Numbered from the stretch's first letter, positions 25,724 to 52,964 are shown. The stretch: 64,000 nucleotides of DNA from a virus (IMGVR_UViG_3300029305_005280); one strand, 5' to 3'. Notes: a model not told the origin generated them from the letters alone. Program-made: numbers and translations.

Positions 25724-25799
25724 TGGGGTGTCGCCAAGTGGTAAGGCACAGGACTTTGACTCCTGCATTCCGGTGGTTCGAATCCACCCACCCCAGCCA
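25724..25799 (+). tRNA. tRNA-Gln(TTG)
   Basis: CAGGA-CTTTGAC-TCCTG; U1-A72; CCA. Confidence 0.95.
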
Positions 25800-26058: not shown

Positions 26059-26158
26059 CACAGTATAGTTTAGTGGCAAAAAACAACCGAATCCCAGGTA
26101 ACAGACAATCCTCACAAGGGATTAAGATACTCAAGTTCGATTCTTGATGCTGTGTCCA
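26059..26158 (+). ncRNA. tRNA-like RNA with replaced anticodon region
   Basis: Acceptor CACAGTA/TGCTGTG + TCCA, D-like arm, T arm TCAAG-TTCGATT-CTTGA; no canonical anticodon arm. Confidence 0.7.
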
Positions 26159-26334
26159 CACGCTATGGTTTTTAGATTCCTTGAGCGTTTTGAACTCCGT
26201 GCAGAACTGAGGACGCTTGGTTTAGAGCAAAACAACAAAGGGCGCTATGACTCTTGAAAGAATAGAGCAAGTCAAATTTGATAATAGTGGCGTTTATGCG
26301 AGTGGGCCGACTACACAGGGAAACTTCGCTACAT

Positions 26335-26409
26335 ATACCCTTGGTGTAATTAGTAGCACGATAGTCTCCAAAACTATTAGTCAAGGTTCAAGTCCTTGAG
26401 GGTATGCCA
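26335..26409 (+). tRNA. tRNA-Trp(CCA)
   Basis: ATAGT-CTCCAAA-ACTAT; CCA. Confidence 0.92.
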
Positions 26410-26478
26410 AGATTAGTTGAATAATTGCTCGAAAGGGCTTATTATATAAAATAGAAAGATAAGTAAAGGATGAAGAAA

Positions 26479-26777
26479 ATGTTTAAGAAAAAGACAAAAG
26501 TAATTGCCCCCCCCCGACCACTCAGGAAATGATTGCTTCGGCAACAAAGAAGATTGAATCAGATATTGTAGCATATAGTGCACAAAAAGATTCTGCACTG
26601 AGTGTATTTCGACAGACTGCAAATAGACTTGAGTCTGTAAACAAGGGACTTACAAATTCGGTTAAGGACCTTGATACTTTAATGAATTTTGCATGTAAGC
26701 AGAAAGAGTCTGTTGAAAAAGCAATTGCAGATAACGAAGCAGTTCGTAATAAGATTCTTGACATTATCGGAAAATAA
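26479..26777 (+). CDS. Coiled-coil protein, reading frame broken at a C9 tract (26507-26515)
   Basis: RBS-linked ATG 26479 is out of frame with ORF 26529-26777; C7 or C10 would fuse them. Confidence 0.6.
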
Positions 26778-26812
26778 TACATAATGAGGCAATATTTTAT
26801 TGCCTCTGATAT

Positions 26813-26889
26813 GCGGAATTGACGCAACTGGTCAGCGTGTCTCCCTTACAAGGAGAAAGTTATAGGTTCGAGTCCTATATTCCGCACCA
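26813..26889 (+). tRNA. tRNA-Val(TAC)
   Basis: TCTCC-CTTACAA-GGAGA; CCA. Confidence 0.93.
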
Positions 26890-27529
26890 GTTGGAGAGAT
26901 GGTACTACCTTAACTTCACTCCGTAGGGTAACGCTTACAACAAAGATTAGTAAGGTACGCATTTTTGGTTTCAGGTAAGACTTTCTATGGTGTTAATAAA
27001 GAAAGGAAATTAAAGTTGCAGCTGGGTTGGTAAACCTCTTTAACGGGAGAAAGCTTCCTCATTGTAACCAAGTGTAGTTATTAGGTACGACATAAGGCCT
27101 TATGCCGGTATAACAGCACTTGTTTATATATAGAATATGCTTGTGAAAAATTTTGCGTATCATGTAAGGCTGTCCGTTGAGGTTGAGCATATTCATTGCA
27201 TATACTGGTGGGACGGCGCCCAACCCTTAAATGAGTGGCTCACGATATCGATGCCAGTATTCATGTTTTCTATATAACTTTATTTCATATGCATTCCCCT
27301 TTCAATAATACATATAAGATAAAGTTTCGAAGTCCAAGCGGTGAAAGTCCGGCAAGACCTGAAAGAAGGAACTTGGCAAATTACTTTAAACATAAGGTGC
27401 TCCGATATAGCATATAGATACTAGTTCATATATATGCCAGCACTCCAAGTAGACAACTGAGTCGAAGTACGGATTTGATAGAGTCGAGCAGGAGCTAAGT
27501 GGAATTTGAGAAACAGCCTTTATATACTT

Positions 27530-27606
27530 GCAACCGTACATCAGGTGGTTAGATGGCTCGCCTGATAAGCGAGATGTCGAAGGTTCGAGTCCTTCCGGTT
27601 GCACCA
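27530..27606 (+). tRNA. tRNA-Ile(GAT)
   Basis: CTCGC-CTGATAA-GCGAG; CCA. Confidence 0.93.
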
Positions 27607-27858
27607 AATCCTGATTGCTGTCACCAAAACAGAATCATACAAGTGTGTGCTTGTGCACTATTCAAAGTTGGAGACGAATAGTGAAAACATAGACCTCTGA
27701 GCTCCAACAAAGAGTGTCTTATCCGAGTTGTGGGTTGTAGGATATTTGAAACTGAGGCAAGATGGTAGGAAACAAGCAAATAGTCCTTATCTAGTATATA
27801 ATAGAAGACGCGGCATAAAATTTGTAACCGCACTTGTAGTAAGTTTACCTTTATATAT

Positions 27859-27934
27859 GTGCCTGTAGCTCAGTTGGTAGAGCACGTGACTTTTAATCAC
27901 GGGGTCCCGAGTTCGAGCCTCGGCAGGCACACCA
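27859..27934 (+). tRNA. tRNA-Lys(TTT)
   Basis: CGTGA-CTTTTAA-TCACG; CCA. Confidence 0.96.
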
Positions 27935-27940
27935 ATATAT

Positions 27941-28019
27941 GCCTCTGTAGCTCATCTGCGGTCAGAGCGCTGGTCTGAAAAACCAGAGGTTGTCTGTTCG
28001 ACTCAGACCGGAGGCACCA
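27941..28019 (+). tRNA. tRNA-Phe(GAA)
   Basis: CTGGT-CTGAAAA-ACCAG; CCA. Confidence 0.92.
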
Positions 28020-28167
28020 GCGTTGGAAATGAAACTACCCAATGTTTGAGACAAGCTCACAAAGATGCTTGAAGCCCGCAAGGCAAAGTGTTGTCCACAT
28101 CAGTCACTTTAGAGGTGGATAGGTTATAAAGTAGGTATACATATAATATAACTGACGGTGACAATAT

Positions 28168-28237
28168 GGGTGTATACTTTAAGTGGTAAAAACTAATGCT
28201 ATATATTAGATTGCTGGTTCGAGCCCAGCTGCGCCCA
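28168..28237 (+). pseudogene. Degenerate tRNA / tRNA-like RNA
   Basis: Acceptor GGGTGTA/TGCGCCC, T arm GCTGG-TTCGAGC-CCAGC, weak D arm, non-canonical loop, no CCA tail. Confidence 0.65.
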
Positions 28238-28252
28238 AGCTCTCCTATATAT

Positions 28253-28329
28253 GCCGGTGTAGCCGAATTGGCATAGGCGCTTGTCTTAGGAACAAGTTTT
28301 TGCAGGTTCGAGTCCTGTCACCGGTACCA
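28253..28329 (+). tRNA. tRNA-Leu(TAG) lacking the long variable arm
   Basis: CTTGT-CTTAGGA-ACAAG; variable region only TTTTT; CCA. Confidence 0.9.
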
Positions 28330-28443
28330 GCGCTTGTCTTAGCGTGGAAGTTTCAAATATAAGACGTAACGCAAGGGAAGCCAAGGCGTGTTCATTATTA
28401 CGCGAGTAATGACAAAGTGGTGCACCACAAGGCTGCCTCCTAT

Positions 28444-28520
28444 GCCGCAGTGGCTCAGATGGCAAGAGCACTCCGTTCATACCGGAGAGGTCACTGGTTC
28501 AAGGCCAGTCTGCGGCACCA
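28444..28520 (+). tRNA. tRNA-Met(CAT) elongator (or Ile2)
   Basis: CTCCG-TTCATAC-CGGAG; G1-C72; CCA. Confidence 0.88.
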
Positions 28521-28735
28521 GAAGGTCAAGCCCCTTCGTACAAGGCTATGCGTTTAAGCTATGCATTCCGACATAATGCAGAGTTCATAAGTTTATTCTT
28601 TAAAGCTTATCGTGTATGAGGTTTATTACTTTTTGTTACCCAAACCCCACGAAATAGGGCAACCAGCAAAAATCAAAAGCGGAATTGATTTACTTTCGAC
28701 AACATGCAGAAGTACAATGCATGTAAATCATGTAA

Positions 28736-28800
28736 AGAAATGTGTGGTGTAAATTGGTAGCATTCACGATGGGTAAGAGGTTCAATTCCTCTACATTTCT
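28736..28800 (+). ncRNA. Anticodon-less tRNA-like element
   Basis: AGAAATGT/ACATTTCT stem, D arm GTGT-AAATTGGTA-GCAT, T arm AGAGG-TTCAATT-CCTCT, only ~12 nt between D and T arms. Confidence 0.65.
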
Positions 28801-28882
28801 TGACAAGGCATAGAGCAAATGGCCTGCCTATTGCAAGGGCTAATAAATGTGCAGAACCCGTCATACTTAATGCGGGACATAT

Positions 28883-28969
28883 GGGTGGATATACCGTAAG
28901 TGGTAGCGGGGCAGACTGTAAATCTGCTGCCTAACGGCTCGGGTGGTTCGACTCCATCTCCACCCACCA
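28883..28969 (+). tRNA. tRNA-Tyr(GTA)
   Basis: GCAGA-CTGTAAA-TCTGC; long variable arm; CCA. Confidence 0.95.
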
Positions 28970-29190
28970 GAGGGAAGTTGACTTTTTGTATTTCAAACAC
29001 ACCTACTAATAGTGGTAGTAAATACTATAATATATTGTCCTGGCAGACAAAAACCAGTGAAATAAAGAATTGCTGCGGGGTATAAGTGCGTGGTAGTGAC
29101 CGTCGCCTCAACAATGCTTAAGGATATCGTCAAATGCCGATTATTGGGATATAGTAACGAATAAATCTGGGAATAGTTACATAGATTTAT

Positions 29191-29265
29191 CCAGATGTAA
29201 GTCAATGGTAGACGGCGAAGTTTGGGACTTCGTAGCTGGGGGTTCGAATCCCTCCATCTGGACCA
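29191..29265 (+). tRNA. tRNA-Pro(TGG)
   Basis: CGAAG-TTTGGGA-CTTCG; C1-G72; CCA. Confidence 0.93.
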
Positions 29266-29272
29266 TTTATTT

Positions 29273-29347
29273 GCCCTCATAGTTCAATGGATAGAACAAG
29301 GGTCTTCTAAACCCTAAATCTAAGTTCGATTCTTAGTGAGGGTGCCA
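29273..29347 (+). tRNA. tRNA-Arg(TCT)
   Basis: AGGGT-CTTCTAA-ACCCT; CCA. Confidence 0.95.
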
Positions 29348-29665
29348 CTAGACGGATTGAGGTCTTGCATAGGTTAGAAAGTAAAAAGGTACGACACTTT
29401 TCCTATAAACCAGTGACTCACACTGTAGAGACTACTAAGAGCTGTGAGGAAAGTCCGATGTGCTCACAGACGCTCAGACAGTAGGCAGCGACGAATAGGC
29501 CTAGTGAAGATGATAACTTTGATAATCAAATAAAAATCCGGTCCAAAGTAAGCATAATATACTAAGTGGCATACATGAGATATTGGTTGGGCAGTGCTTC
29601 GCCTATTTAATCAAAAGCTAGTGTATGTACCCCCAGTTTTCCGGATGGGTCTGGGTAGTTTATCT

Positions 29666-29756
29666 GGAGGAGTACCCAAGTGGTTGAAGGGTCCGGTCTT
29701 GAAAACCGGTAGGTCGGGCAACCGGCGCGGGAGTTCGAATCTCCCCTCCTCCGCCA
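29666..29756 (+). tRNA. tRNA-Ser(TGA)
   Basis: CCGGT-CTTGAAA-ACCGG; long arm; GCCA. Confidence 0.96.
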
Positions 29757-29866
29757 AATCTAAAACACTTGTGGTTCAAGGTTCATGAGTATTCCGTTCG
29801 ATTCGGAAGTAATAAATGGATGATGTAACAATCTCTCATGTTTTTAGTGGTTCAATTCCACTTTAT

Positions 29867-29956
29867 GGAGCGATGGGTGAGAGGTTGAAACCACCTCCCT
29901 GCTAAGGAGGCGAGGTCTACGGGCCTCCGACAGTTCGAATCTGTCTCGCTCCGCCA
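29867..29956 (+). tRNA. tRNA-Ser(GCT)
   Basis: CCTCC-CTGCTAA-GGAGG; long arm; GCCA. Confidence 0.95.
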
Positions 29957-29961
29957 TATAT

Positions 29962-30050
29962 GGTAGCCGTGGTGGAATTGGTAGACACGCTGGATTGTGG
30001 CTCCAGTACTCTTTTGAGTTGTGAGAGTTCAAGTCTCTCCGGTTACCCCA
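29962..30050 (+). tRNA. tRNA-His(GTG) with a long variable arm
   Basis: G-1:C73, CTGGA-TTGTGGC-TCCAG, extra arm ACTC-TTTT-GAGT, CCA. Confidence 0.88.
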
Positions 30051-30079
30051 GATAAAATATAATAACTGAGGTGTTTACG

Positions 30080-30196
30080 ATGCTAAGAGATAAACTTTAC
30101 TATGAAAATAGAATTAGTTTGCTTTCTAATAGAGCAAAAGAGAATCAAAGAATCATTGCGAAACTAAAAAGAAAGCTAAGACAACTTGAGGCATAA
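30080..30196 (+). CDS. Small basic peptide (38 aa, not in ORF track)
   Basis: GAGGTG RBS; MLRDKLYYENRISLLSNRAKENQRIIAKLKRKLRQLEA. Confidence 0.55.
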   Translation: MLRDKLYYENRISLLSNRAKENQRIIAKLKRKLRQLEA

Positions 30197-30203
30197 TAAC
30201 AGA

Positions 30204-31013
30204 ATGAATCATAATAAATATGGTTGTAAACCTCCTCAAATTGATGTAAGAGACTACAAACTTGCAAAAACCGCAGTTGACGCCTCTTCCTTACCTGTCG
30301 CATATGTTCCTATGCAATTACCAGCAGTTAAAAATCAAAAAAGTGTTTCTTCTTGTGTAGCACATACAACAAGTTCGATTCTTGAATTCCATGATATTGA
30401 AAATGGTAATACATTATCAACTAACTTCATATATGGTATTCAAAAACAATTTTGTGGACATGAAGGCTCAGGAATGTATTTGAGAGATGCTTGTAAAATT
30501 GTTAAAGAATATGGCGATATGCTCGAAAGTGACTGCTCTGGTAACGACGAAATACCTAAGTGCTGGGAGATTGCACAGGATGCCCTTAATAACGATAAAT
30601 GCAAAAAGAATGCACAGGCGTTTAAAGTAAAATCTTATTTCAATTGTTCCAGTAATAATGACATTAAAAGAGCAATCTATGAATACGGGCCTGTTTTATG
30701 TTCTATTAAATGGTATGATACGTTCAAAGTGGATAAAGATGGTGCTCTTGAAGGAGCTCAAAAAGGTGACTATGGTTATCATGCAGTAATGATTTATGGA
30801 TGGAATTCAACAGGATTTTTGTGTCAAAATAGTTGGGGCAAAAATTGGGGCGTAAATGGTAGATTTGTTCTTCCTTATAGTATCCCAGTTGCGGAAGCAA
30901 AGGGCTTAGTCGACGAAGAAACATCAAATATTATTATTCCTAAAAGAAATAAATTTTTAGATTTTATTTATAAGATTGTAAATGCCATTGTTAACTTTTT
31001 CAAAGGTAAGTAG
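30204..31013 (+). CDS. Papain-family (C1) cysteine peptidase
   Basis: NQKSVSSCVA (Gln/Cys), YHAVMIYGW (His), QNSWG..WG..G (Asn). Confidence 0.92.
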   Translation: MNHNKYGCKPPQIDVRDYKLAKTAVDASSLPVAYVPMQLPAVKNQKSVSSCVAHTTSSILEFHDIENGNTLSTNFIYGIQKQFCGHEGSGMYLRDACKIVKEYGDMLESDCSGNDEIPKCWEIAQDALNNDKCKKNAQAFKVKSYFNCSSNNDIKRAIYEYGPVLCSIKWYDTFKVDKDGALEGAQKGDYGYHAVMIYGWNSTGFLCQNSWGKNWGVNGRFVLPYSIPVAEAKGLVDEETSNIIIPKRNKFLDFIYKIVNAIVNFFKGK

Positions 31014-31023
31014 GTGCTAATCA

Positions 31024-31749
31024 ATGAGTGTTGATACATCATTAAAAACCGAAGTATTTGAAAAAGGTGTAAGAAAGAATTCTTTCATTCAGGATAATAA
31101 CAAGTGGTATAATACAACGGGTGTTGGTGGATATTCAACATGTATTGTTGGTAGCCCATCAAGAAGTGGTGCAAATGTTCTTTGCAATTGTGTAGGGCTT
31201 GCTAATGGGGCATTTAATGAAACATATGTTAAATGTAAGCAAACATTAGATTCATCCTTTGTACCTAAACAATATTATGCTTTTACTTCCAATGGTAATA
31301 CGACAATAACAAGAGCAAAATCATTAGGACTAGAAACTATTGACCCTTCAGGTATTCCTCCTCTTGGTGGTTTAATCTCTTGGGGTGGAGGAGCCAATCA
31401 CGTTGCATATATAGCTGATGTTATTGATAATGACACTATAGTTATAGTACAGGCAGGTTATGACACGCCAGTATGGTCTCAGAGAAATACCGCTGATACA
31501 GGTTGGGTATGTGATGCAAGAACTATAAAAAGAGGTTCTTCGAATCTGTGGGCATATCAGAATTCAGTTCCAAGTGGCACTGTTTGTCAAGGATTTGTTG
31601 TTAATCCTGCAGTAGCTGATGCAATAGAAGCAATATATGGAGTTAGACTTGGTAATCAATTATATTCTGCTCATATATGGAAAGATGGTAAATGGAATAA
31701 AACAATTCCTCACCTGTGGTCAAATGGTAAATGGAATAAAACAAATTAA
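31024..31749 (+). CDS. CHAP-domain peptidoglycan hydrolase
   Basis: NCVGLA (Cys), P.LGGLISW..GANHVAYI (His), QGFV. Confidence 0.8.
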   Translation: MSVDTSLKTEVFEKGVRKNSFIQDNNKWYNTTGVGGYSTCIVGSPSRSGANVLCNCVGLANGAFNETYVKCKQTLDSSFVPKQYYAFTSNGNTTITRAKSLGLETIDPSGIPPLGGLISWGGGANHVAYIADVIDNDTIVIVQAGYDTPVWSQRNTADTGWVCDARTIKRGSSNLWAYQNSVPSGTVCQGFVVNPAVADAIEAIYGVRLGNQLYSAHIWKDGKWNKTIPHLWSNGKWNKTN

Positions 31750-31906
31750 AAATTATTAAAGATTTAGTTGAATCTTCTCAATTTACATAATATAATTATT
31801 GTATAATATAAAGTAGCATAAAACACAAGATTGCAAAAAAACTTGTTTGTGAGAGTTTTAAACCATCGGTGCCTGCACTGGTAGTATTTTAAATCACAAC
31901 CTATAT

Positions 31907-31982
31907 TCCCACTTAGCTCAGTCGGTAGAGCACTCGGCTGTTAACCAAGCGGTCGCAGGTTCGAGCCCTGCAGTGGGAGCCA
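31907..31982 (+). tRNA. tRNA-Asn(GTT)
   Basis: Loop CTGTTAA (one stem mismatch); GCCA. Confidence 0.93.
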
Positions 31983-32117
31983 CAGGTCCACTGTTAGGTG
32001 TTTTCATACGACCTGTACAAATAAACATTTTAGAAAACATGTGGTGCTTAAAGGTATGGTAAGACATATGTGCTTACGAAGCGTTTCGACCAATGTCCGA
32101 CTCGAAACGAATCATTT

Positions 32118-32192
32118 GCTGGCGTGGCTCAATGGTAGAGCAGCTGATTTGTAATCAGCAGGTTGCAGGTTCGACTCCTGTCGCCAGCTCCA
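32118..32192 (+). tRNA. tRNA-Thr(TGT)
   Basis: GCTGA-TTTGTAA-TCAGC; CCA. Confidence 0.96.
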
Positions 32193-32196
32193 ATAT

Positions 32197-32272
32197 GGGG
32201 CCATAACTCAACTGGGAGAGTGCCTGCTTTGCAAGCAGGATGTTAGGGGTTCAAGTCCCCTTGGTTCCACCA
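32197..32272 (+). tRNA. tRNA-Ala(TGC)
   Basis: CCTGC-TTTGCAA-GCAGG; G3:U70; CCA. Confidence 0.95.
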
Positions 32273-32344
32273 ATAGTTTCATAGAGTTCTAATAAACTAT
32301 GTGCTTGTCACTTTAAGAAGTGAGTGGGTATAAAGTCCCACAAA

Positions 32345-33003
32345 TTCGTACCTTGAAAGATGTATACAATATAACTCAGTGATAAACATAAGGTACGCTC
32401 CTTATGCTGAGAGGAGCCCTAATTCTTCGGAAACGATTCCACGACAGAGAAACGTAAGAGGATACTCGGAAAAATGTCGTTACTTTGAGTAGTGATATTC
32501 AAAGTTGCAGAAGTAAACTTCAATGGAATGGGCTCTGTGCTGAGGTTATTGCAAGTAATGGTAAAGTGGGCATCGCACTCGTAATAGAGGCTATCGTTAA
32601 TACCGATAGCTGAATCCAAGTTAGGATTTTAGCTGGTGACTGTAATCAAACCTTGTGAAATACCACCAAGAGTGTTGGTCGTGATGTTCTTGAAAAAGAA
32701 AGTATAAGGTGCTCATCCAGTTTCCGAGTAGCCGAAGACCAGTGGTAATTGAAGAAACAAATAATTTAGAAAGTAAGATTATCAAATTCTTCTGAATAGA
32801 CGGTGAAAGGTGCAGGTAATCAGTCCTGCTATAGCTTGTGTGGTCCAGGGTCCCGCCGTTAACGGGAAGCCCAGACTTCGTGGCAAGAAGTTAGGGGTCG
32901 CTACCCGAAGCTCAGACTTGTCATCTATATGACCGAATATACTTGAAAATAATTATCAGTAATCCGAAGGGATAGTTGTTGTATATATCTTTAAAGGTAC
33001 GAA
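32345..33003 (+). ncRNA. Large structured RNA, ROOL-like
   Basis: 659 nt, no credible ORF, closed by a long terminal helix TTCGTACCTTGAAAGATGTATACAA / TTGTATATATCTTTAAAGGTACGAA; internal hairpins GCAGG-TAATCAGT-CCTGC and GGG-GTCGCTA-CCC; flanked by tRNAs. Confidence 0.75.
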
Positions 33004-33043
33004 AAGTGTGCCGTTCGCTTGCGGCTAATCAAGCGAGTTATAT

Positions 33044-33119
33044 CGCGGAGTGATGCAGTGGTCAGCAATTTGGGCTCATAACCCAAAAGTCAGTGGTTCG
33101 AATCCACTCTCCGCAACCA
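33044..33119 (+). tRNA. Initiator tRNA-fMet(CAT)
   Basis: C1:A72 mismatch, GGG/CCC in anticodon stem, loop CTCATAA. Confidence 0.94.
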
Positions 33120-33210
33120 GCTGTTTAGGTTTTACATTTGTTGTACAGTTCAGCGTGTCAAACTACAAACAAATGCGGTTTATAGGCATTGTCCGATAAC
33201 AATGACTTAT

Positions 33211-33285
33211 GGTCTCTTGGTGAAGTGGTTATCATATGTGCCTGTCACGCACAAGTCACGAGTTCAATTCTCGTAGGGACCGCCA
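33211..33285 (+). tRNA. tRNA-Asp(GTC)
   Basis: TGTGC-CTGTCAC-GCACA; GCCA. Confidence 0.93.
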
Positions 33286-33306
33286 TAGTACATCAAAGCT
33301 TATAAT

Positions 33307-33340
33307 AAAAAGAGTATCAAGTTAGATTGGTACTCTTTTT
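33307..33340 (+). terminator. Terminator closing the tRNA/ROOL operon
   Basis: AAAAAGAGTATCAA/TTGGTACTCTTTTT hairpin. Confidence 0.85.
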
Positions 33341-33412
33341 ATTTTTAGTTGATTTATTACAACTGTCAATATATAATATAAGTGAAGAAAACGAAAAGGA
33401 AGGGTATCAAAA

Positions 33413-33643
33413 ATGAATATCAATGAAATTACAATGGGAATGACTCCGCAAGAAAAAGACATCTATTTCGCTCATATGGAAAAAAGACATAAAGAAGAAC
33501 AAGAAAAAGTTGAGCTTGAAAGAGCTCAAACAAGAGCATATAAAGAATCTTTAATTGAAGACATAATGAAAAGTAAGCCTAATTCTGATATTGAATATTT
33601 AAAGAAGCTTTCTATCAGGTCGTTGGAAAGAATATGGTGCTAA
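33413..33643 (+). CDS. Hypothetical protein
   Basis: Promoter 33346-33377 + GGAAGG RBS. Confidence 0.7.
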   Translation: MNINEITMGMTPQEKDIYFAHMEKRHKEEQEKVELERAQTRAYKESLIEDIMKSKPNSDIEYLKKLSIRSLERIWC

Positions 33644-33954
33644 AAATGCAAATAACAAAACATTGGTTGGAGCGAGAATTTCGTATCCAGTTTATAAAAG
33701 ATAAAATAGGAGTTGGAAATCCTGTTAATTCATTTAGAGTTGATAAAGGACATCCTGATGGTCCTGAAATACATACTTTAACTGATACAGGTATCATAAT
33801 AATTAAAAATGCTTATACAGGTAATCTAATAACAATGCTTATAGCAAGGCCCGGACAGGTGCAAAGATATTATGAACGACAAAGAATGGCTGCTCCACCC
33901 GATTTAATTAAAACTGCGGTAAAGCATCAAAGGTTAGGTTACAATGAAATATAG
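33634..33954 (+). CDS. Conserved hypothetical phage protein
   Basis: VDKGHPDGPEIH.LTDTGIIII.N...LIT.LIARPGQ. Confidence 0.7.
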   Translation: MVLKMQITKHWLEREFRIQFIKDKIGVGNPVNSFRVDKGHPDGPEIHTLTDTGIIIIKNAYTGNLITMLIARPGQVQRYYERQRMAAPPDLIKTAVKHQRLGYNEI

Positions 33955-33993
33955 TTGAATATTCAACTTACATATATTATAATATAAACATAA

Positions 33994-34407
33994 TTGATAA
34001 GGAAGGTTGGTTATATGGGATACGAAAGTAAACTTTATGTTGTGGATGTAAAAGATGACAATAGTATGTGCCTTGGTCCTAAAGGAATGAAATGGGGTCA
34101 GGTTATTGCAACATTTGAATTAAGCGTTTTTGAACCTGTTAGAAACTATTTCAAAACTAGAACAAACACAGATTGTTATATCTATGCCGATGATGGTAAT
34201 ACAATAATCTTAGAGGATAGATATGGTAATCCTTTAACAGAATCAAACATTGAACCTCTTGTAAACCTTCTTAAAGAAGAAGCTCTTGATGATTCTTTTG
34301 GAGGTCAACCCTATCGTAGAATAAAGCCCTGTCTTGCAATGTTGGAGATGTTTATGCTCAATTCTTCGCAGTGGGGCAATCTTAAAGTATTACATTATGG
34401 GTATTAA
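33994..34407 (+). CDS. Hypothetical protein (likely start MGYESK)
   Basis: Promoter 33952-33983, GGAAGG RBS. Confidence 0.7.
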   Translation: MIRKVGYMGYESKLYVVDVKDDNSMCLGPKGMKWGQVIATFELSVFEPVRNYFKTRTNTDCYIYADDGNTIILEDRYGNPLTESNIEPLVNLLKEEALDDSFGGQPYRRIKPCLAMLEMFMLNSSQWGNLKVLHYGY

Positions 34408-34470
34408 GTTGAAATAATCAACATAATATATTATAATGATATATGAAGAAAGACAAAGGAGTGTTCTTAG

Positions 34471-36120
34471 ATGAGTAAATTATCTAAAGCAGTTGAAGCA
34501 ATGCACGAAGATGTAGTGCTTCGTAAAGATGAAACAGAAGTTAACTTTATGGGTGGTGACTCCTACAAGTTAAATCCGCTTGAAACCTTGAAGATGATTA
34601 GTGCTTCTTCCATCTTTGGTGAACCTTCTTACTACCGTGACGGCAGAAGTGCAAAGAAAACACTTTACAAGGTAGACAGGCTTGTAAAAGATTGGCTCAT
34701 TATTCCTGACCGCTATGTAGGTAAAAATACAGAGCAAATCATGGAGTCTGCAATTGATGCAGCACTGGAGTATGATTTTGGCGCGACGCTTGAGTGGGCA
34801 ACTACTTTGCGTAATGATTTCTTTATGCGTCTTAATCCTCAAGTCATTATGGTAAGAGCAGCTATGCATCCTAACCGTAAAGAATGGACCGAGGCTAATC
34901 CTGGCAAATTCAATGAATATAATCAGATGGTTATGAAGCGTGCAGATGAGCCTATGTCTCAGATGGCTTACTATCTGTATCTTAATAAAGGTAAGAAGAA
35001 TAAGATTCCTTCTGTTATTAAACGCTCTTGGGCTGACAATCTGAGCAAGCTGAATCGTTACAAGGTTGCTAAATACAAGAATCATGAAATTGGAATGATT
35101 AACGGTGTACGCCTTTGCCACGCAAATTCCAAAGTTCTTGATGAACTGATGACCAGTGGCACCGTTGAAGTTTCTGAGGATTCTAAAACTTGGGAAAATC
35201 TTCGTTCAGAAGGAAAGACCTGGGAAGAAATCTTTGATACTGTAGATATGGGCCATATGGCATTACTGAGAAATATCAGAGGCGTTTTCTCCGAATCTGA
35301 CAACAAGGACCTTTTTGTAAGATACATGACTAAACTTAAATCAACTGTAAAAGATGGAAAGCAATTTCCTTTCAGATACTGGTCTGCAATCCAAGCTGTT
35401 CAAGGCAGTAACTGTAACTTTAAACCCTTAATCATTGATGCCCTTGAAGAATGTATGGATATTGCGGTTGATAACTATCCCAAGCTAAGAGGCAAAACAA
35501 TGTGCCTATCAGATAACTCTGGCTCTGCTTGGGGAGCTGTAACAACTGAGTACGGCTCTGTGACTGTTGCAAATATTGATAATCTTTCCTCTGTTATTAC
35601 TGCAGCTTGTTCCGATGAAGGATATGTTGGTAAGTTTGGTGACAGATTGATTACCCATCCTATCAGCAAACGCAGAGGTATTCTGTCTCAAGCAGAAGCA
35701 ATTACTCGTGATAGAGACCGAGATGTTGGCGGTGGTACTGAAGGCGGTATCTGGGAATTCTTCAGAAGTGCTATTGATAAGAAAGAACACTGGGACAATA
35801 TCTTTATCTATTCTGATATGCAAGCAGGACATGGTGGTCTGTATGGCACAAGTTCTCAATACAATGACTATCGTCGTAGAGGATATGATATTGGAAACCA
35901 TATCAATGTGTTCAAACTTGTACAGGATTATAGAAAAATTGTTAATCCCAAAGTAAATGTATTCTCTATTCAAACAGCAGGTTATACTAATAACTTGATG
36001 CCTGAGATGGCATACAGAACTGCAATTTTGAGTGGTTGGACTGGCAAGGAAGCTTCTTTTGCGGAAGAGTACATTCGTCAGTGGGATGAAATTGAAACAA
36101 AAAATTCTAAAAAGAATTAG
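34471..36120 (+). CDS. rsr: Ro60/Rsr-like TROVE-domain RNA-binding protein
   Basis: NFMGG..Y start, EPSYY, VAKYK, TWE, MALLRNIR, QFPFRYWSA, vWA MIDAS-like SDNSGS, YSDMQ, LSGW; own promoter 34406-34437. Confidence 0.93.
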   Translation: MSKLSKAVEAMHEDVVLRKDETEVNFMGGDSYKLNPLETLKMISASSIFGEPSYYRDGRSAKKTLYKVDRLVKDWLIIPDRYVGKNTEQIMESAIDAALEYDFGATLEWATTLRNDFFMRLNPQVIMVRAAMHPNRKEWTEANPGKFNEYNQMVMKRADEPMSQMAYYLYLNKGKKNKIPSVIKRSWADNLSKLNRYKVAKYKNHEIGMINGVRLCHANSKVLDELMTSGTVEVSEDSKTWENLRSEGKTWEEIFDTVDMGHMALLRNIRGVFSESDNKDLFVRYMTKLKSTVKDGKQFPFRYWSAIQAVQGSNCNFKPLIIDALEECMDIAVDNYPKLRGKTMCLSDNSGSAWGAVTTEYGSVTVANIDNLSSVITAACSDEGYVGKFGDRLITHPISKRRGILSQAEAITRDRDRDVGGGTEGGIWEFFRSAIDKKEHWDNIFIYSDMQAGHGGLYGTSSQYNDYRRRGYDIGNHINVFKLVQDYRKIVNPKVNVFSIQTAGYTNNLMPEMAYRTAILSGWTGKEASFAEEYIRQWDEIETKNSKKN

Positions 36121-36125
36121 TGATT

Positions 36126-36157
36126 TAGTTGATAAATGAAGCATAAAGCTTTATAAT
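36126..36157 (+). promoter_or_regulatory. Promoter for the Y-RNA-like array
   Basis: TAGTTGA-N19-TATAAT; no ORF downstream. Confidence 0.8.
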
Positions 36158-36189
36158 ATAAATGTAGAAAGATAATTAAATATTGACAA

Positions 36190-36296
36190 CTGCTTGATGC
36201 AGAGACAGATGCTTACTTCATTGGTTGAAAATTTGTCTTGAAAACGAATACAGCAGGTTCGAGTCCTGTATTAGCATCTTCATTATTCTCAAGCAG
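36190..36296 (+). ncRNA. Y RNA (YrlA-like) unit 1, Ser(UGA) anticodon arm + T arm cargo
   Basis: CTGCTTGA/TCAAGCAG, AGATGCT/AGCATCT; GATGCAG, TTACTTC, TATTCTC; ATTTGT-CTTGAAA-ACGAAT; GCAGG-TTCGAGT-CCTGT. Confidence 0.85.
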
Positions 36297-36317
36297 GACC
36301 TTCCTTTATGGAATAGT

Positions 36318-36421
36318 ATTTCTGATGCAGTAAATCAAGTTACTTCAGGCTTTGACTTTTAATCAAAATACCTAATAGACTTAAAATCTATCAATACACT
36401 TGATTTGATATTCTCAGAAAT
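36318..36421 (+). ncRNA. Y RNA-like unit 2, two bare anticodon arms Lys(UUU) + Leu(UAA)
   Basis: ATTTCTGA/TCAGAAAT, AAATCAAGT/ACTTGATTT; TTTGA-CTTTTAA-TCAAA and ATAGA-CTTAAAA-TCTAT. Confidence 0.85.
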
Positions 36422-36441
36422 TATTGTATAAAATATATAAC

Positions 36442-36609
36442 ATGTGTGAAGCAGGGAGATTAGTTACTTCGAAAGGTTTGGTCTGTTAAACCCGAAGTCG
36501 TTGGTTCGAATCCAACCATTGTTAGTAACGGCGAGTGAAAGCAATGTAACTCAGCTGGAAAGAGTGCGTGTAAATTTAGAAATTTACTAATTTCATTATT
36601 CTCACACAT
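36442..36609 (+). ncRNA. Y RNA-like unit 3, circularly permuted Asn(GUU)-type tRNA cargo
   Basis: ATGTGTGA/TCACACAT, GAGATTAGT/ACTAATTTC; order anticodon loop CTGTTAA, T arm, acceptor CATTGT/GCAATG, D arm. Confidence 0.85.
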
Positions 36610-36624
36610 CTATTTAAAAGTAAT

Positions 36625-36774
36625 ATTTACGATGCAGTCATATCAGTTACTTCGTTGCATTGGGTGCCTGGTGTCATTGGTTCGAGTCCAATATTCCCGC
36701 CCATTTATGCGGGAATTAGCTCAGTCGGTAGAGCACAGTAGAAATTATTAGCTGATATATTTATTCTCGTAAAT
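36625..36774 (+). ncRNA. Y RNA-like unit 4, circularly permuted Pro(UGG)-type tRNA cargo
   Basis: ATTTACGA/TCGTAAAT, ATATCAGT/GCTGATAT; loop ATTGGGT, T arm, ATTCCCGC-CCA-TTTAT-GCGGGAAT, D arm TAGCTCAGTCGGTAGAGCA. Confidence 0.88.
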
Positions 36775-36791
36775 TTTTAATTTGATGTTAT

Positions 36792-36912
36792 AGCTGAAGC
36801 AGACTACAGAGTTACTTCAAATACATAGTACTAATGTTATATTATATAAAAGAACAAAATATGTTAGCCGTGAGCTTACATAGATAAACACTCTGTAACT
36901 TAATTCTCAGCT
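36792..36912 (+). ncRNA. Y RNA-like unit 5, AT-rich cargo
   Basis: AGCTGA/TCAGCT, TACAGAGT/ACTCTGTA; GAAGCAG, TTACTTC, AATTCTC; no tRNA motif inside. Confidence 0.78.
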
Positions 36913-36918
36913 TTATTT

Positions 36919-36995
36919 GCGGGATTGGTGTTTAATGGTTAGCATCTCAGTCTTCCAAACTGATGGTGAGGGTTCGAGTCCCTTATCCCGCTCCA
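36919..36995 (+). tRNA. tRNA-Gly(TCC)
   Basis: TCAGT-CTTCCAA-ACTGA; U73; CCA. Confidence 0.95.
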
Positions 36996-47626: not shown

Positions 47627-48325
47627 TGTTAGAGCCTTTAGCAGTAAAACTGCTTGATAAACACTATGAGCTTGAGGATGCTCTAACTCTTGAGGGGAAT
47701 TCTTTTTCTTTGAGAGTACGTTTAATCTTAAGAAGATTAAAAGCACACAAGGCAGCTAAAAAACTAGAGTCTTTATATAGGAAGTGATGTTGATGGGCAG
47801 CTACAAAGGATTACCAAAGGATACGACTATTGTATTCCCATCTTTGATAAGAACAGGACATGATATTATTTTAAAGGTTGTTTCTTATAATGAAGAGACA
47901 GAGTCATATGAAGTTGCAAGGGTGTATAAAGATAGAATCACACCAACAACTGAAAAGTTAACAGTTAAATCAATGGAGGCAAGAAACCCCTTGATTACTC
48001 TACCGGGAGGTATCCATGAAGCATAATGAAATGTTGTTTCAAGAAGCAATAGAATTTATTACACCTTTGCGTCCTATCAAAGTTGTATGGAATGATAAAA
48101 CAATTATTTACAATGATTATGACAGTGACAATGTGTGCACTGTTTTTGAAGACGGTACTAAGGCGTATGGAGAAATTTTCCCTCTTCAAGCTGTTATCTC
48201 TCAACGCCTTGGTCAAACTTTGGAAAAGTATGATGTGTTTGTAAAGAGTTTTAATGTTAAGATTGTTGATTATCATCATACGCTAGTATACTTGTATGGA
48301 TACAAAAAACGGAGGAAAAAGAAAA

Positions 48326-49159
48326 ATGACTAAAGATTCACTTGGTGACCGTATGAAGCATAACTACGAAAATCGTAGTAAAACATATCTAACGAGAAGA
48401 ATGCCTGTTATTATTAGATTAGATGGAAAAGCATTTCATTCATTCACTCGAGGATTTGAAAGACCTTATGATACTGTATTTCATACTGCAATGAACAATA
48501 CTTTGCAGTATCTATGCGAGAATATTCAAGGGTGTCGATTAGGTTATACACAGTCCGACGAAATAACATTATTATTAACTGATTATGAAAAATTAACAAC
48601 AGACGCTTGGTTTGATTATGCGGTACAAAAGATGTGCTCTGTCGCTGCATCTATGGCTACAATGGCCTTTAATAGATATTTTATGGATGCAGTAAATGTT
48701 GCTTACAATGAATTTACAAATGGTACTACTGATATTCAATCGTTCTACCCTAATATTAAGGATTTTGACAGATTGTTTGATACACGTTTTAGTAGAATCA
48801 ATACCGCTTGTTTTGATGAACGATGCTTTAATGTTCCTAAAGAGGAAGTTGCAAATTGTTTTATCTGGAGACAGCAAGATGCAACAAGAAATGCAATTCA
48901 AATGCTTGGGCAAACACATTTTTCTGATAAACAACTTGATGGTAAATCAAATAGCGAAGTTCAGGATATGTTAATGTTAGAAAAAGGTATCAATTTCAAC
49001 GATATGGCAACAGAATTCAAACGTGGTGTGTGCTGTTGTAAAATAGCAAATCCTGAGGAATCAACAACTATCGGTGTTCTGATTAGACCTCAATGGGTAA
49101 TTGATACTGAAATTCCTATCTTTACTCAAGATAGAAACTATATTGAGAGGTTTGTTTAA
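48326..49159 (+). CDS. thg1: tRNA-His guanylyltransferase-like (Thg1/TLP) 3'-5' polymerase
   Basis: IIRLDGKAFH.FT, YTQSDEI, FD.R.F..P, WRQQDA.RN. Confidence 0.94.
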   Translation: MTKDSLGDRMKHNYENRSKTYLTRRMPVIIRLDGKAFHSFTRGFERPYDTVFHTAMNNTLQYLCENIQGCRLGYTQSDEITLLLTDYEKLTTDAWFDYAVQKMCSVAASMATMAFNRYFMDAVNVAYNEFTNGTTDIQSFYPNIKDFDRLFDTRFSRINTACFDERCFNVPKEEVANCFIWRQQDATRNAIQMLGQTHFSDKQLDGKSNSEVQDMLMLEKGINFNDMATEFKRGVCCCKIANPEESTTIGVLIRPQWVIDTEIPIFTQDRNYIERFV

Positions 49160-49954
49160 TTGAAATTATTTGTAGTTAGCGATATACATTCTTTCTATAC
49201 ACCATTGAAAGAATCACTTGATAAAGCAGGGTTTGACCCCACCAATGAAAATCATTGGTTAATCAGCTGTGGAGACGCATTTGATAGGGGTCCACAAAGT
49301 AAAGAAGTTCTTGAATTTTTAATGAGTCTTGAGAGAAAGGTTCTTGTCAAAGGTAATCATGATATATTACTTAAAGAACTTTGTATGCGTGAATTTCCTT
49401 ACTCACATGATAAATCAAATGGTACTGTCAAAACTGTGATTAGTTTTGGTCACTTTGATGGACGTAATTTTGATGAATGCTGCCGAACAACCTGGAATAA
49501 AACTGCAAGATACAGAGAGTTATTAGTAAATTATTTTGAAACTCAAAATTATATCTTTGTTCATAGCTGGATACCCACTAATGTTAAATATGAAGGAGAA
49601 ATGAAACCTTGGTATCAACAAGGCAAGACTCTTACTTGGATGGAAGATTGGCGTAATGCTAATGACGTCGAATGGGAAGAGGCTATGTGGGGTAACCCCT
49701 TCAAGAGATGGCAAGAAGGTCTTAATAAAACAGGTAAAATAATAGTGTTTGGGCACTGGCACTGTTCTGCGGGGCACGCTATGCTGCACGAAGTAAAGGT
49801 ATCAGAAAATGAATCAGTAGGTACAATATCTGAATTTGAAGATGATGCCGTCTGGGACCCTTTTATTCATGATAATATTATTGGTATTGACCGATGCACA
49901 GCACACACTGGTGAAGTAAATGTGTTAGTACTGGAGGACGATTTTCTTGAGTGA
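49160..49954 (+). CDS. Metallophosphoesterase (Ser/Thr phosphatase-like)
   Basis: SDIHS, GDAFDRG, GNHD, FVHS, GHWH, ID. Confidence 0.9.
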   Translation: MKLFVVSDIHSFYTPLKESLDKAGFDPTNENHWLISCGDAFDRGPQSKEVLEFLMSLERKVLVKGNHDILLKELCMREFPYSHDKSNGTVKTVISFGHFDGRNFDECCRTTWNKTARYRELLVNYFETQNYIFVHSWIPTNVKYEGEMKPWYQQGKTLTWMEDWRNANDVEWEEAMWGNPFKRWQEGLNKTGKIIVFGHWHCSAGHAMLHEVKVSENESVGTISEFEDDAVWDPFIHDNIIGIDRCTAHTGEVNVLVLEDDFLE

Positions 49955-50997
49955 AAGTTTAAAACAAGATATATTAAATGCAGCAAGAGATGGCTACCAA
50001 CCAATAAATGACCCTTCAAAACAAACGGTGGATTGGTCCAAGCTTCCGACAACAGGAAGTAATGTCACCAAATTACCAAAGACATCAAGTGTTGAGGCAT
50101 ACATTCAATGTTTAGAGAATGAATTAATCAAACAGATTGCACTCAAGCAGAATGCTGAAAGTCATGCATCAACAATGGAAGCTATTGCAAACAAGTACTA
50201 TGAATTCTATTTGAAGGAGGTACATCGAAATGCGAAAGTTACATATTGGAAGAAAGCAATTTGTAAGCATTCTAGAATCAATTCAAAAAGGAATAGAAAA
50301 AAGAGACAAATTCAACAATGCAATGGAAGAAATTTCCGATAGCTACTTTATATGTGAACTTGGCAATGAGTGGCTAAATGCTTCAATAATTTTACTTGAG
50401 AAAGCAGTAAAAGATAAAGCTGAAACAATTAGTTGGTGGTTATGGGAAGATGTTGAAAAAGTTATATACATACCTCCAGAGCATCCAGATAATCCTTTTG
50501 GCAAAGAACTCAAAGTAAAAGTTGACACTCCTGATAGATTATATAGTTATTTTCAACGATATACTTAGATATAAAAGAAGTCAAAATAAATTAGTTGACT
50601 TCTTTTTATTTTTACCATATAATATAGTAAAGAAGGGAAGGTTGTTTATATGAATATAAGAAAATTTTTTAAAGTTATTGTATGGGTTGTTACAATTTTG
50701 CTGCTTCTGTATATTATAGCAGTGTCAGAAATTGATACACTTATCGGAATTGTCGGAGGAGTTTTGATTGCAATAATTGTTCCTCCAATCATTATGGGTA
50801 AGTTTGAAGTTGTTTCAAAACCCAGTAGAGAAAAGAAAGAAACTAAAAAGCAAAAGACAGTTGTAACGCATCCTACAAGTTGGTGGGTTGATAAAACTTA
50901 TGTTCCCGGTGTGGGATACAGGGACGATGAAGGTAATTATTATGATTACAATGGTATACCAAAACCGTCAACCGTTATTACGAGGGAGAAAAAGTAA
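49947..50997 (+). other. Hypothetical genes 49947-50342, 50230-50568, 50650-50997 (last has 2 TMs)
   Basis: Packed + strand ORFs. Confidence 0.55.
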
Positions 50998-51149
50998 TGG
51001 ATAAAAGAGTATTCAAAAAGACACCTGAAGAATTACAACTGTATCTACACTTTAAAAAACGTGGCTTTAAGATTGAAAATAAAAAAGGCAAGGGTTCCTA
51101 TAAAAGGAACCCTAAACATAAGGGTGATAAGAATGGACAAGAAGAGTAG
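50997..51149 (+). CDS. ArfA-like alternative ribosome-rescue peptide (50 aa, not in ORF track)
   Basis: MDKRVFKKTPEELQLYLHFKKRGFKIENKKGKGSYKRNPKHKGDKNGQEE; KKGKGSY.R..KH signature; TAATG coupling and GGAG RBS. Confidence 0.75.
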   Translation: MDKRVFKKTPEELQLYLHFKKRGFKIENKKGKGSYKRNPKHKGDKNGQEE

Positions 51150-51933
51150 AATAATGGAAAGACTACATCATGATATGATGTATGTTACTAATAAAGGTTA
51201 CAAAGTACTTGGTGTATTTCTACAAGGTAGTCAAAATTACAATCTTGACTATCCGGGTTCTGATATTGATACAAAGTGTATTGTTATTCCTTCATTTGAA
51301 GATATTGTTTTAAACAAACAACCTGCAAGTACTACTCTTATACTTGAGGATAATTCACATATTGATGTTAAAGATGTACGTCTTATGTGGCAGTGCTTCA
51401 AGAAACAAAACATTAACTTTCTTGAGATTCTATTTACAAAATATTATATAGTAAGTAGTAGATATGAATTGTTCTGGAATGATATGAGAGAAATCGCAGA
51501 ACGTATTGCACACTATAATAACTATGCTGCAGTTAACTGCATTGCGGGTATGGTTATGGAAAAGAATGCAGCGTTGTGTCACCCATATCCAACATTGAAG
51601 GACAAGATTGATAAGTATGGCTATGATAACAAGCAACTACATCATATTATTCGATGTGAAGAATTCTTACAGCGATATATTGATGGTGTTCCGTATAAAA
51701 AATGTTTAATTCCTTTGTTTCCTGAATACTTAATCAATGTTAAATCAACATATATGTATTCACTTGAAGAAGCAAAAGAAATAGCAAGAAAAGCTGTTGA
51801 AAATGTTAAAGAAATAAAACAGAAATATATGGACACACATCCTGTAAGCATTGATGACGGCGTTGAAACTACAATGACTGAAATACTTGTTGACATAATG
51901 AAAAGGTCTATTGCAGAGGACATCAAAGATTAG
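51133..51933 (+). CDS. Pol-beta-type nucleotidyltransferase
   Basis: LQGSQNYNL....SDIDTK, D.KD.R, N.NFLEILF, K.L.H..R. Confidence 0.85.
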   Translation: MDKKSRIMERLHHDMMYVTNKGYKVLGVFLQGSQNYNLDYPGSDIDTKCIVIPSFEDIVLNKQPASTTLILEDNSHIDVKDVRLMWQCFKKQNINFLEILFTKYYIVSSRYELFWNDMREIAERIAHYNNYAAVNCIAGMVMEKNAALCHPYPTLKDKIDKYGYDNKQLHHIIRCEEFLQRYIDGVPYKKCLIPLFPEYLINVKSTYMYSLEEAKEIARKAVENVKEIKQKYMDTHPVSIDDGVETTMTEILVDIMKRSIAEDIKD

Positions 51934-51995: not shown

Positions 51996-52964
51996 GTGGA
52001 AACCTTTGTACCCACAAATTTAAAAATTCCCGAGTTTGTTATGCTTGTAGGTTTGCCAGGAAGTGGTAAATCATATCTAGCTGATATTCTTTTTGCTAAG
52101 AAATACAGCATACATAGCAGTGATGAAATAAGAAAAGAGTTATCAGGTGACATCAATAATCAAAATATAAATTCACAAGTATTTCAAACTTTACATAGAA
52201 GAATAAAAGATGATTTAAAAAATGGTATTAGTTGTGTTTATGATGCAACTAATATTAACTATAAAAAACGAATGTCATTTCTGCAAGAATTAAACAAGAT
52301 TCAATGCTTTAAGAGATGTATTATTATTGCAACCCCATATGAAGTTTGTTTAATGCAAAATGAGCAACGGGAACGTAAGGTTCCTGAGCAAGTTATTGAA
52401 CGCATGTATCGTAATTTTGATGTTCCTTATTATTTTGAGGGCTGGGACAATATTGAATTATTCTATGCAAAGGATTCATACAAAGAGGCTTATGGTGACT
52501 GGTCTTACTTTGTATTTGATACCCTTACATATAATCAGGATAACAAATATCATATCGAAACACTTGGAGAACATTGTCGTAAGTGTAAAGAATATGTAGA
52601 AAATTACAATAATAAAACAACTCTTAAAGGAACGCATATTGCTCACGCTCAAAGAGTCGCTGCTGCATTACATGATTGTGGTAAGCCTTTTTGCAAAACA
52701 TTCGAAGATACAAAAGGTAATATCACTGAAAGTGCACATTATTACAATCATGAAAAAGTAGGTAGTTATAACTCTTTATTTTATGAAACTGAAACTCAGT
52801 TAACACCGATTAGATTGTATATTGCAGCATTGATACGATGGCACATGCAAATGCATTTTATTGATAATCAACCACACGCAAAAGGAAAGTATATAAAGTT
52901 ATTTGGTGAAGAATTCTACAAAGAGCTGGAGGTATTACATAATGGAGACAAACAAGCACATTAA
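51996..52964 (+). CDS. Polynucleotide kinase (AAA_33) fused to HD phosphohydrolase
   Basis: GLPGSGKS, SSD.IR, DATN, R.R.VP; H...L.EH, LHDCGKP, HYY.HE..G, WHM. Confidence 0.88.
   Translation: METFVPTNLKIPEFVMLVGLPGSGKSYLADILFAKKYSIHSSDEIRKELSGDINNQNINSQVFQTLHRRIKDDLKNGISCVYDATNINYKKRMSFLQELNKIQCFKRCIIIATPYEVCLMQNEQRERKVPEQVIERMYRNFDVPYYFEGWDNIELFYAKDSYKEAYGDWSYFVFDTLTYNQDNKYHIETLGEHCRKCKEYVENYNNKTTLKGTHIAHAQRVAAALHDCGKPFCKTFEDTKGNITESAHYYNHEKVGSYNSLFYETETQLTPIRLYIAALIRWHMQMHFIDNQPHAKGKYIKLFGEEFYKELEVLHNGDKQAH

Follow-up and report, generated by a model that had tools for sequence, protein, structure and literature searches.

The 64,000-nucleotide stretch of DNA analysed here (the window), from the virus IMGVR_UViG_3300029305_005280, a large uncultured phage of the gut, encodes at positions 50997-51149 of its + strand a basic peptide of 50 amino acids that resembles the bacterial ribosome-rescue factor ArfA. 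With moderate confidence, and by analogy with ArfA, we propose that the product is a phage-borne alternative rescue factor that is made constitutively and recruits a release factor. The initial annotation of this DNA was right in kind when it described an ArfA-like peptide within an RNA-repair gene cluster; it was wrong about the role of a hairpin inside the gene and too broad in extending rescue to tRNA cleavage.

Homology of the putative A-site segment and mRNA-channel tail of the peptide to ArfA is statistically supported. The stretch concerned, codons F19-N46 (51051-51134, + strand), corresponds to E. coli ArfA F25-N50 and covers both the A-site/RF2-strand region and the basic tail NKKGKGSY-R--KH. 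Comparison of the family with 22 enterobacterial ArfA sequences in hhalign gave a 95% probability (E 3.6e-8) over 26 columns, F19-N46 against F25-N50, and within this match the A-site mid region (ArfA His21 to Glu30) is represented by window residues F19-E27, aligned with ArfA F25-K31. Pfam ArfA (PF03889) was the sole family matched by the window protein (E 0.0015, 18.4 bits), with residues 27-42, the motif originally quoted as ArfA-type, set against positions 29-44 of the 44 in the model; 105 of 106 family members match the same model at E<=0.01. Among all PDB sequences, a search with the single protein gave six matches, every one of them ArfA, and a search with the family profile gave these six again at E 1.8e-4 to 6.5e-4 and nothing else below 0.3. 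BLASTP found 11 of 14 residues identical between N28-H41 and E. coli ArfA N32-H45. This offset of four residues (N28 = ArfA N32) places the end of the 50-residue product at ArfA-equivalent 54. ArfA cut at Asn47 is active and shorter forms are inactive, truncations following Met40 abrogating ArfA-mediated release (PMC5378476), so that in length the product corresponds to an active truncated form of ArfA.

The KH motif, common to ArfA and BrfA and bound in a pocket of the channel (PMC8012679), is present in the window protein as K40-H41. Elsewhere in the family F/L/M-K stands in its place (e.g. -NRQDFKKGE), at loci L002, L018-L020, L023, L028-L033, L039, L044-L045 and L065-L072. Members with such tails may differ in how they bind the channel, or may be a subclass in function.

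The open reading frame (ORF) is a real gene under purifying selection. It ends in its own TAG stop codon (51147-51149) and is preceded, 8 nt 5' of its ATG, by a Shine-Dalgarno-like GAGGGAG recognised from the sequence (50982-50988, + strand). The TAA of the upstream ORF (50995-50997) and the ATG (50997-50999) have one A in common, giving TAATG (50995-50999). The coupling that had been described for this 50-residue ORF is thus borne out by the ORF list and the sequence, as is its basic character (16 Lys/Arg against 7 Asp/Glu). A word-indexed search returned 120 homologous proteins of 41-82 residues and 61-100% identity, and in an exhaustive profile search the matches at E<=1e-3 numbered 301 clusters (50% identity), of which 114 reached E<=1e-10; the best 150 of the 301 were listed, and the evidence for kinship with ArfA comes from Pfam, PDB and hhalign. 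An alignment of 106 members (A1) shows G31 and G33 to be invariant, with 16 more positions at least 90% conserved across both halves (EELQ, KRGF, KKGKGSY-R--K). Codon changes between the window gene and that of locus L078, whose proteins are 86% identical, comprise 21 synonymous and 5 non-synonymous substitutions, and 20 of the 28 nucleotide differences fall at codon position 3. It is this synonymous excess, together with homologues that keep the frame, the ribosome-binding site and the conserved position, that marks the ORF as a gene. The protein also matches PHROG 37108 (E 7.2e-7, 30.3 bits; residues 13-44 against profile positions 14-46 of 48), a family of unknown function whose lack of functional annotation means that it adds no mechanism.

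The N-terminal part of the peptide is peculiar to the family. In ArfA, an N-terminal hydrophobic minidomain (I11, A18, L19, L24, F25) stabilises open RF2 via Trp319, to which Leu19, Leu24 and Phe25 bind; His21-Glu30 lie in the A site, and the C-terminal region sits in the mRNA tunnel (PMC5378476). Residues 1-18 of the window protein gave no alignment to ArfA in hhalign or Pfam, and from the minidomain set F19 alone pairs, with F25. In their place is a family-specific module, EELQ-YL-F-KRGF (codons P10-F24; 51024-51068, + strand), in which a hydrophobic helix is predicted over residues 10-21. Residues E11, E12, L13, Q14, K21, R22, G23 and F24 of this module are each at least 90% conserved among the 106 sequences, as are K29, K30, K32, S34, Y35 and R37 of the tail, and the N-terminal half as a whole is conserved as strongly as the tail. 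An AlphaFold2 monomer built from the family alignment, modelled off the ribosome and of moderate confidence (mean predicted local distance difference test score 71), has a helix at residues 10-21 and is extended over the remainder, K40-H41 included. Conservation of the N-terminal helix would imply a specific partner beyond electrostatic channel binding. Since this conservation equals that of the tail, in members from unrelated gene contexts, one can argue for a partner that all hosts share, such as a release factor. The initial annotation had assigned to the motif KKGKGSY.RK.KH both entry into the empty mRNA channel and recruitment of RF2. The first role agrees with the tail as the empty-channel sensor of ArfA; the second does not, because in ArfA it is the mid and N-terminal part that engages RF2 (PMC5378476), and this part is different here.

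In the mechanism that we favour, the basic tail, from N28 through H41 and further, would insert itself into the mRNA entry channel of the 70S ribosome only when the channel is empty, as in a ribosome at the 3' end of a truncated message. F19-E27 would occupy the A site and, with the N-terminal helix, would draw in a class-I release factor of the host, by analogy RF2, and hold it in the open form, in which it would hydrolyse the peptidyl-tRNA without a stop codon; the recruited factor may be RF2, RF1 or both (both as for ArfT). The gene has its own TAG after the tail, no + strand terminator was found within or 3' of the ORF in a terminator scan, and no Rfam element was detected, which argues for production whenever the operon is expressed. 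The normal stop codon and the packing within an RNA-repair operon would thus make the peptide constitutive, produced with the repair enzymes and outside the control of transfer-messenger RNA (tmRNA). Its likely use would be to maintain a supply of free ribosomes while mRNAs are being cut by host RNases or RNA-targeting defences, in hosts without ArfA and ArfB; it could act on messages that toxin RNases, RNA-targeting CRISPR or nucleases of abortive infection have truncated, while tRNAs would be dealt with by the repair enzymes next door. The initial annotation had the peptide rescue ribosomes stalled after cleavage of either mRNA or tRNA. An ArfA-type factor needs a vacant channel, which intact mRNA fills, and so action after mRNA cleavage is possible but direct action on ribosomes starved by tRNA cleavage on an intact message is not. 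Within this scheme, that the peptide binds ribosomes and recruits a release factor, which factor this is, what the biological trigger is and to which phylum the host belongs are all inferences.

Several findings weigh against this proposal. The PF03889 score falls under the gathering threshold of 25.5 bits for the window protein and for every relative tested (best 24.2-24.9), and in all of them the match is limited to the C-terminal half (profile positions ~23-44), compared with 89.5 bits over positions 2-43 for E. coli ArfA; an NCBIfam scan of the window protein gave no match. In about half of the members on fetched loci F/L-K replaces KH, and the pocket contact of the tail is therefore not universal. 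The RF2-activating ArfA residues I11, A18, L19 and L24 have no aligned counterpart in the window protein, so that recruitment of a release factor rests on analogy. RNA-repair neighbours, as recognised with the window's own proteins, occur at ~14 of ~70 loci. Lastly, we infer the host phylum, a Firmicute host being likely, from relatives at the protein level, because a megablast search of 48-53 kb against cultured phages gave no match. With a score below the gathering threshold and only the C-terminal half matched, the product is by its sequence an ArfA-like variant and, by the Pfam rule, no family member. It is in this qualified sense that a search against the ArfA family model finds the peptide that had been predicted to be ArfA-like.

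A reading that we regard as unlikely is that the peptide binds ribosomes by its tail only, occupying the vacant channel without recruiting a release factor. It might then block tmRNA-SmpB, leaving phage proteins untagged for degradation, or might park or inhibit host ribosomes, and the N-terminal helix might serve another contact. The limitation of ArfA homology to the mid region and tail, with the RF2-activating residues of ArfA not recognisable, is as this reading would have it and counts against release-factor recruitment. The aligned stretch, however, starts at F19 (ArfA F25) and so takes in the A-site segment (His21 to Glu30; PMC5378476) rather than the tail alone, and the product has the length of an active ArfA form. 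A near-invariant helix across many gene contexts is likewise what would be expected for a universal partner such as a release factor.

The placing of the gene in an RNA-repair cluster, as first described, is confirmed by the domains of its neighbours, all on the + strand, and by the conservation of their order in relatives. Upstream lie a Thg1-like 3'-5' nucleotidyltransferase of the tRNA 5'-end repair family (48296-49159; PF04446, E 8e-29), a calcineurin-like metallophosphoesterase (49160-49954; PF00149, E 1e-16) and a predicted membrane protein of 115 residues (50650-50997), whose stop overlaps the ArfA-like start. Downstream are an RlaP-like nucleotidyltransferase (RNA repair pathway, Pol-beta family; 51133-51933; PF10127, E 0.0022; PHROG 388, E 1e-14) and a polynucleotide-kinase-like P-loop kinase fused to an HD domain (51996-52964; AAA_33, E 3e-20; HD, E 0.028). 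The order Thg1, phosphoesterase, ArfA-like, nucleotidyltransferase, kinase-HD is kept at loci L005, L017 and L074-L077, where the nucleotidyltransferase is immediately 3' of the ArfA-like gene, and L074-L077 also have a membrane-protein gene of equal size and position. L078 and L079 have the same order without a Thg1 match and with extra genes inserted, at least one of them between the ArfA-like and nucleotidyltransferase genes. In another lineage, with contigs of ~150 kb, the ArfA-like gene is followed by genes for a cREC_REC protein, RNA ligase, NT5C and NrdD. The overlap reported between the ArfA-like gene and the start of the nucleotidyltransferase holds if the first ATG in that frame, 51133, is used (17 nt); its size depends on the start, the other in-frame ATGs lying at 51154 and 51175. 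A candidate promoter-like site found by consensus scan (TTGACT, 17 nt, TATAAT; 11/12 matches; 50595-50623, + strand) lies in the sole upstream gap and may be the start of a unit comprising the membrane protein, the ArfA-like peptide, the nucleotidyltransferase and the kinase-HD protein.

Such tight packing with repair genes, together with the tRNA genes and RNA ligase found near relatives, would suit an improbable alternative in which the peptide is a non-ribosomal RNA-binding accessory. It would bind tRNA or broken RNA ends and help the nucleotidyltransferase and kinase-HD protein, and its motif would be convergent. That motif, however, is specific and not just basic, as the invariant G31 and G33 indicate, and ArfA is its sole PDB match and sole consistent Pfam match. 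Nor is the association with such genes general: in addition to the modest share of loci with repair neighbours noted above, among the fetched loci, 29 of the 54 distinct ORFs of the family have no nearby tRNA gene.

The hairpin described within the motif codons is present as a perfect 9-bp stem with a 5-nt loop (51091-51113, codons K32-P39), with a local folding energy of -14.9 kcal/mol. When codons were resampled synonymously with phage codon usage, the fold was as stable in 0.015% of 20,000 trials (p about 1.5e-4), and the stem depends on two rarely used codons, TCC (5% of Ser) and AGG (8% of Arg). Gly (GGN) and Pro (CCN) codons account for part of the stem complementarity, and the 64-kb window has just 8 distinct hairpins of nine perfect base pairs and a loop of 3-8 nt (14 stem-and-loop matches, against a mean of 2.85 in shuffles). 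In bacteria, arfA and brfA carry a hairpin or terminator within the ORF, and are translated from non-stop mRNAs and held low by tmRNA (PMC8012679). This precedent, along with the perfect stem, its rare codons and its resampling statistic, favours an ArfA-style regulatory element, at which cutting or termination would give a non-stop mRNA and peptide would accumulate only when tmRNA is saturated. Some family members that abut or run into tRNA genes, and so may have non-stop designs, also speak for it. We nonetheless consider this reading very improbable, first because the stem is not conserved. Of the relatives aligned, the two near-identical ones, L074 and L075, have the stem unchanged, and in L078, L079, L005 and L017 it is degraded. 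In L078 and L079, at 86-90% protein identity, the common codons TCT, AGA and AAT disrupt it, and L005 pairs in a shifted register, which is not covariation. In 35 other distinct family sequences the same codons fold at 0 to -7.7 kcal/mol, and these folds, with the stem-breaking codons of the relatives, rule out the hairpin as a family feature. There is, moreover, no T-run 3' of the hairpin on the + strand, nine base pairs are short as a substrate for RNase III, and the gene has a normal stop. A cut in codons 32-39 would also end the peptide at ArfA-equivalent 36-43, under the active minimum of N47 (PMC5378476). Rather than as the ArfA-type non-stop switch, we regard the hairpin as a lineage-specific feature whose role is probably minor.

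An Rfam scan of 48-54 kb found no RNA family, and the hairpin therefore corresponds to no known element. A local translational pause, mRNA stabilisation or antisense termination are alternative roles for it. On the minus strand (51113-51091) the stem is followed by TGCCTTTTTT, a T-run that is the antisense of Lys codons, and the arrangement has a terminator-like score. All ORFs of at least 250 residues in the window are on the + strand.

An ORF present by chance between genes or where they overlap, to which shortness below the usual annotation cut-offs might point, has a negligible probability, being ruled out by conservation (hundreds of homologues in one reading frame, a ribosome-binding site and a constant position) and by a substitution pattern in which synonymous changes far outnumber non-synonymous ones.

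Our favoured reading, an ArfA-like rescue factor, invites comparison with the known systems. ArfA of gamma- and betaproteobacteria (YhdL; PF03889; PDB 5MDV, 5U4I, 5MGP, 5H5U) is, like the window product, small and basic and carries KH. The two tails are near-identical and homology extends back to F25/F19, but the N-terminal 18 residues of the window protein are unaligned and a distinct helix (EELQ-YL-F) stands instead of the ArfA minidomain. ArfA genes are non-stop, with an RNase III hairpin or terminator in the ORF, whereas the window gene has its own TAG and, on the coding strand, neither an internal RNase III hairpin nor a terminator. They also reside on proteobacterial chromosomes; a survey of more than 15,000 genomes, in line with reviews, found ArfA in Gamma- and some Betaproteobacteria only, BrfA in the B. 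subtilis group, and Firmicutes almost devoid of ArfA and ArfB (PMC11633108, PMC8012679). The present family, on phages of probable Firmicutes, thus falls outside the range stated for ArfA. BrfA (YqkK of B. subtilis, PDB 6SZS) is RF2-dependent and has an N-terminal alpha-helix, an RF2-pairing strand and a basic KH tail in the channel (PMC8012679), and the predicted model, of moderate confidence and made off the ribosome, suggests that the window product may have a similar helix-plus-tail layout. Sequence similarity to BrfA was not detectable, no chain of that name being among the PDB matches of the family profile at E<=10, and the BrfA gene, unlike the window gene with its stop codon, yields a terminator-truncated non-stop mRNA.

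Phage carriage of ArfA is already recorded in annotations and one paper, although unstudied. Canonical ArfA is annotated in Pseudoalteromonas phage J2-1 and in Citromicrobium phage vB_CbaS-RXM (g10), the latter also named in a single sentence of a paper (PMC8953757). Copies in proteobacterial phages align with E. coli ArfA starting at its residue 4 or 14, whereas the present family has another N-terminal half. Two further canonical-type homologues are found under other names, in Salmonella phage Arash (OQ632216.1, 57961-58074; H52), annotated 'ribosomal protein L2', and in Pseudomonas phage pf16 (131796-131912; H56), annotated 'hypothetical protein'. Phage ArfA goes unmentioned in papers that compare release factors or jumbo phages (PMC6514570, PMC7824862), and our literature search found no paper on the present divergent, unannotated clade, the passing annotation in the Citromicrobium phage being the only related report.

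The family is essentially phage-borne. It occurs almost only on phage contigs of 90-400 kb, with 55 loci in IMG/VR on contigs of up to 402 kb. Among 185,579 prokaryotes, represented by one genome per species, there were only 12 loci, all on contigs of metagenome-assembled genomes binned mostly with Bacilli, Clostridia, Oscillospiraceae and Acutalibacteraceae; two of these contigs (158 and 176 kb) are probably phage genomes. The cultured carriers found were seven Enterococcus phage records only, which encode a 48-residue 'hypothetical protein' ~2.7 kb from a tRNA array; tblastn of the divergent member P0116 against cultured phages gave no match. For the window phage itself, the nearest relatives of NrdD are in uncultured human-faecal phages and next in an Enterocloster phage, and matches to the nucleotidyltransferase are nearly all in phages of Bacillales hosts (Bacillus, Lysinibacillus, Brevibacillus, Alicyclobacillus), with one in an uncultured human-gut phage.

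On a wider and more tentative view, which we hold to be possible at somewhat short of even chances, these peptides form a large ArfA-derived clade in big phages rich in tRNA genes, whose Gram-positive hosts from gut and rumen have neither ArfA nor ArfB. The clade would have acquired a new N-terminal helix for the release factor. It would be constitutive here, beside tRNA and RNA repair enzymes, and would counter RNA-cleaving defences; in sister genes that abut tRNA genes or run into them it would be non-stop and tmRNA-gated, and phages would be the main reservoir and vehicle of the ArfA tail module. ArfA, BrfA and ArfT have been described as narrow, lineage-specific bacterial inventions, and here the ArfA tail and mid region are found in a family of hundreds of clusters, borne by phages of probably Firmicute hosts. 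If the peptides are active, phages would import ribosome-rescue capacity within a translation-maintenance toolkit against RNA-targeting defences, which would bear on the spread of the ArfA module. The window gene would, if active, also provide a natural 'always on' ArfA that bears a stop codon and whose activating module differs, a help in taking apart the way in which RF2 is opened by small peptides. The cultured Enterococcus phages with the 48-residue homologue (EF1, where it is ASZ76726.1, the VRE9 series and H1) make the idea directly testable.

Beyond the repair cluster, the window carries genes for NrdD (10320-12566) and RNA ligase (16082-17110) and an array of 25 tRNA genes in 12 kb (25007-36995), in which a TROVE/Ro60-like gene is embedded (34471-36120; PF05731, E 2.5e-6). 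With its 25 tRNAs, TROVE/Ro60-like gene, RNA ligase and NrdD, the window phage has an unusually complete RNA-maintenance toolkit.

Proximity to tRNA genes is a feature of part of the family: the other 25 of the 54 distinct ORFs on fetched loci are in or near tRNA arrays. The stop codon lies inside the downstream tRNA in 2 cases, and the tRNA starts within 30 nt of it in 8, within 400 nt in 7 and within 3 kb in 8. The 10 ORFs that end within 30 nt of a tRNA gene or inside one mostly adjoin tRNA-Glu or tRNA-Val. The positions concerned are 6153/6159 at L006 and L008, 6138/6141 at L016 and 6150/6156 at L064, with L063 also belonging to this group; L012, L015 and L027 have gaps of 20-23 nt, and at L014 and L031 the stop is 15-17 nt inside the tRNA. 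RNase P processing at tRNA-abutting members would leave the stop at the extreme 3' end or remove it, a possible non-stop design that the window copy, which has no such arrangement, does not share. Several of these members (L006, L008, L063, L064, L012, L015 and L027) share endings -D(R/K)CA or -FPACA before the stop, which may reflect a constraint on the pre-tRNA leader rather than on the protein.

Related phages in which the ArfA-like gene lies inside a tRNA array also contain tRNAs with stop-reading anticodons (tca, cta, tta; ARAGORN), at 2616-2689 and 6575-6648 of L008, 3625-3715 of L010, 3847-3937 of L036 and 4605-4679 of L064. This hints at stop-codon reassignment in some carriers, and a link to release-factor biology is conceivable. 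One near-identical contig (P0001; ENA, 158,400 bp) has the ORF called as 68 residues, fused to an upstream out-of-frame stretch, presumably because the run GAGAAAAAG immediately 5' of the start differs in length by one base, or through an assembly error.

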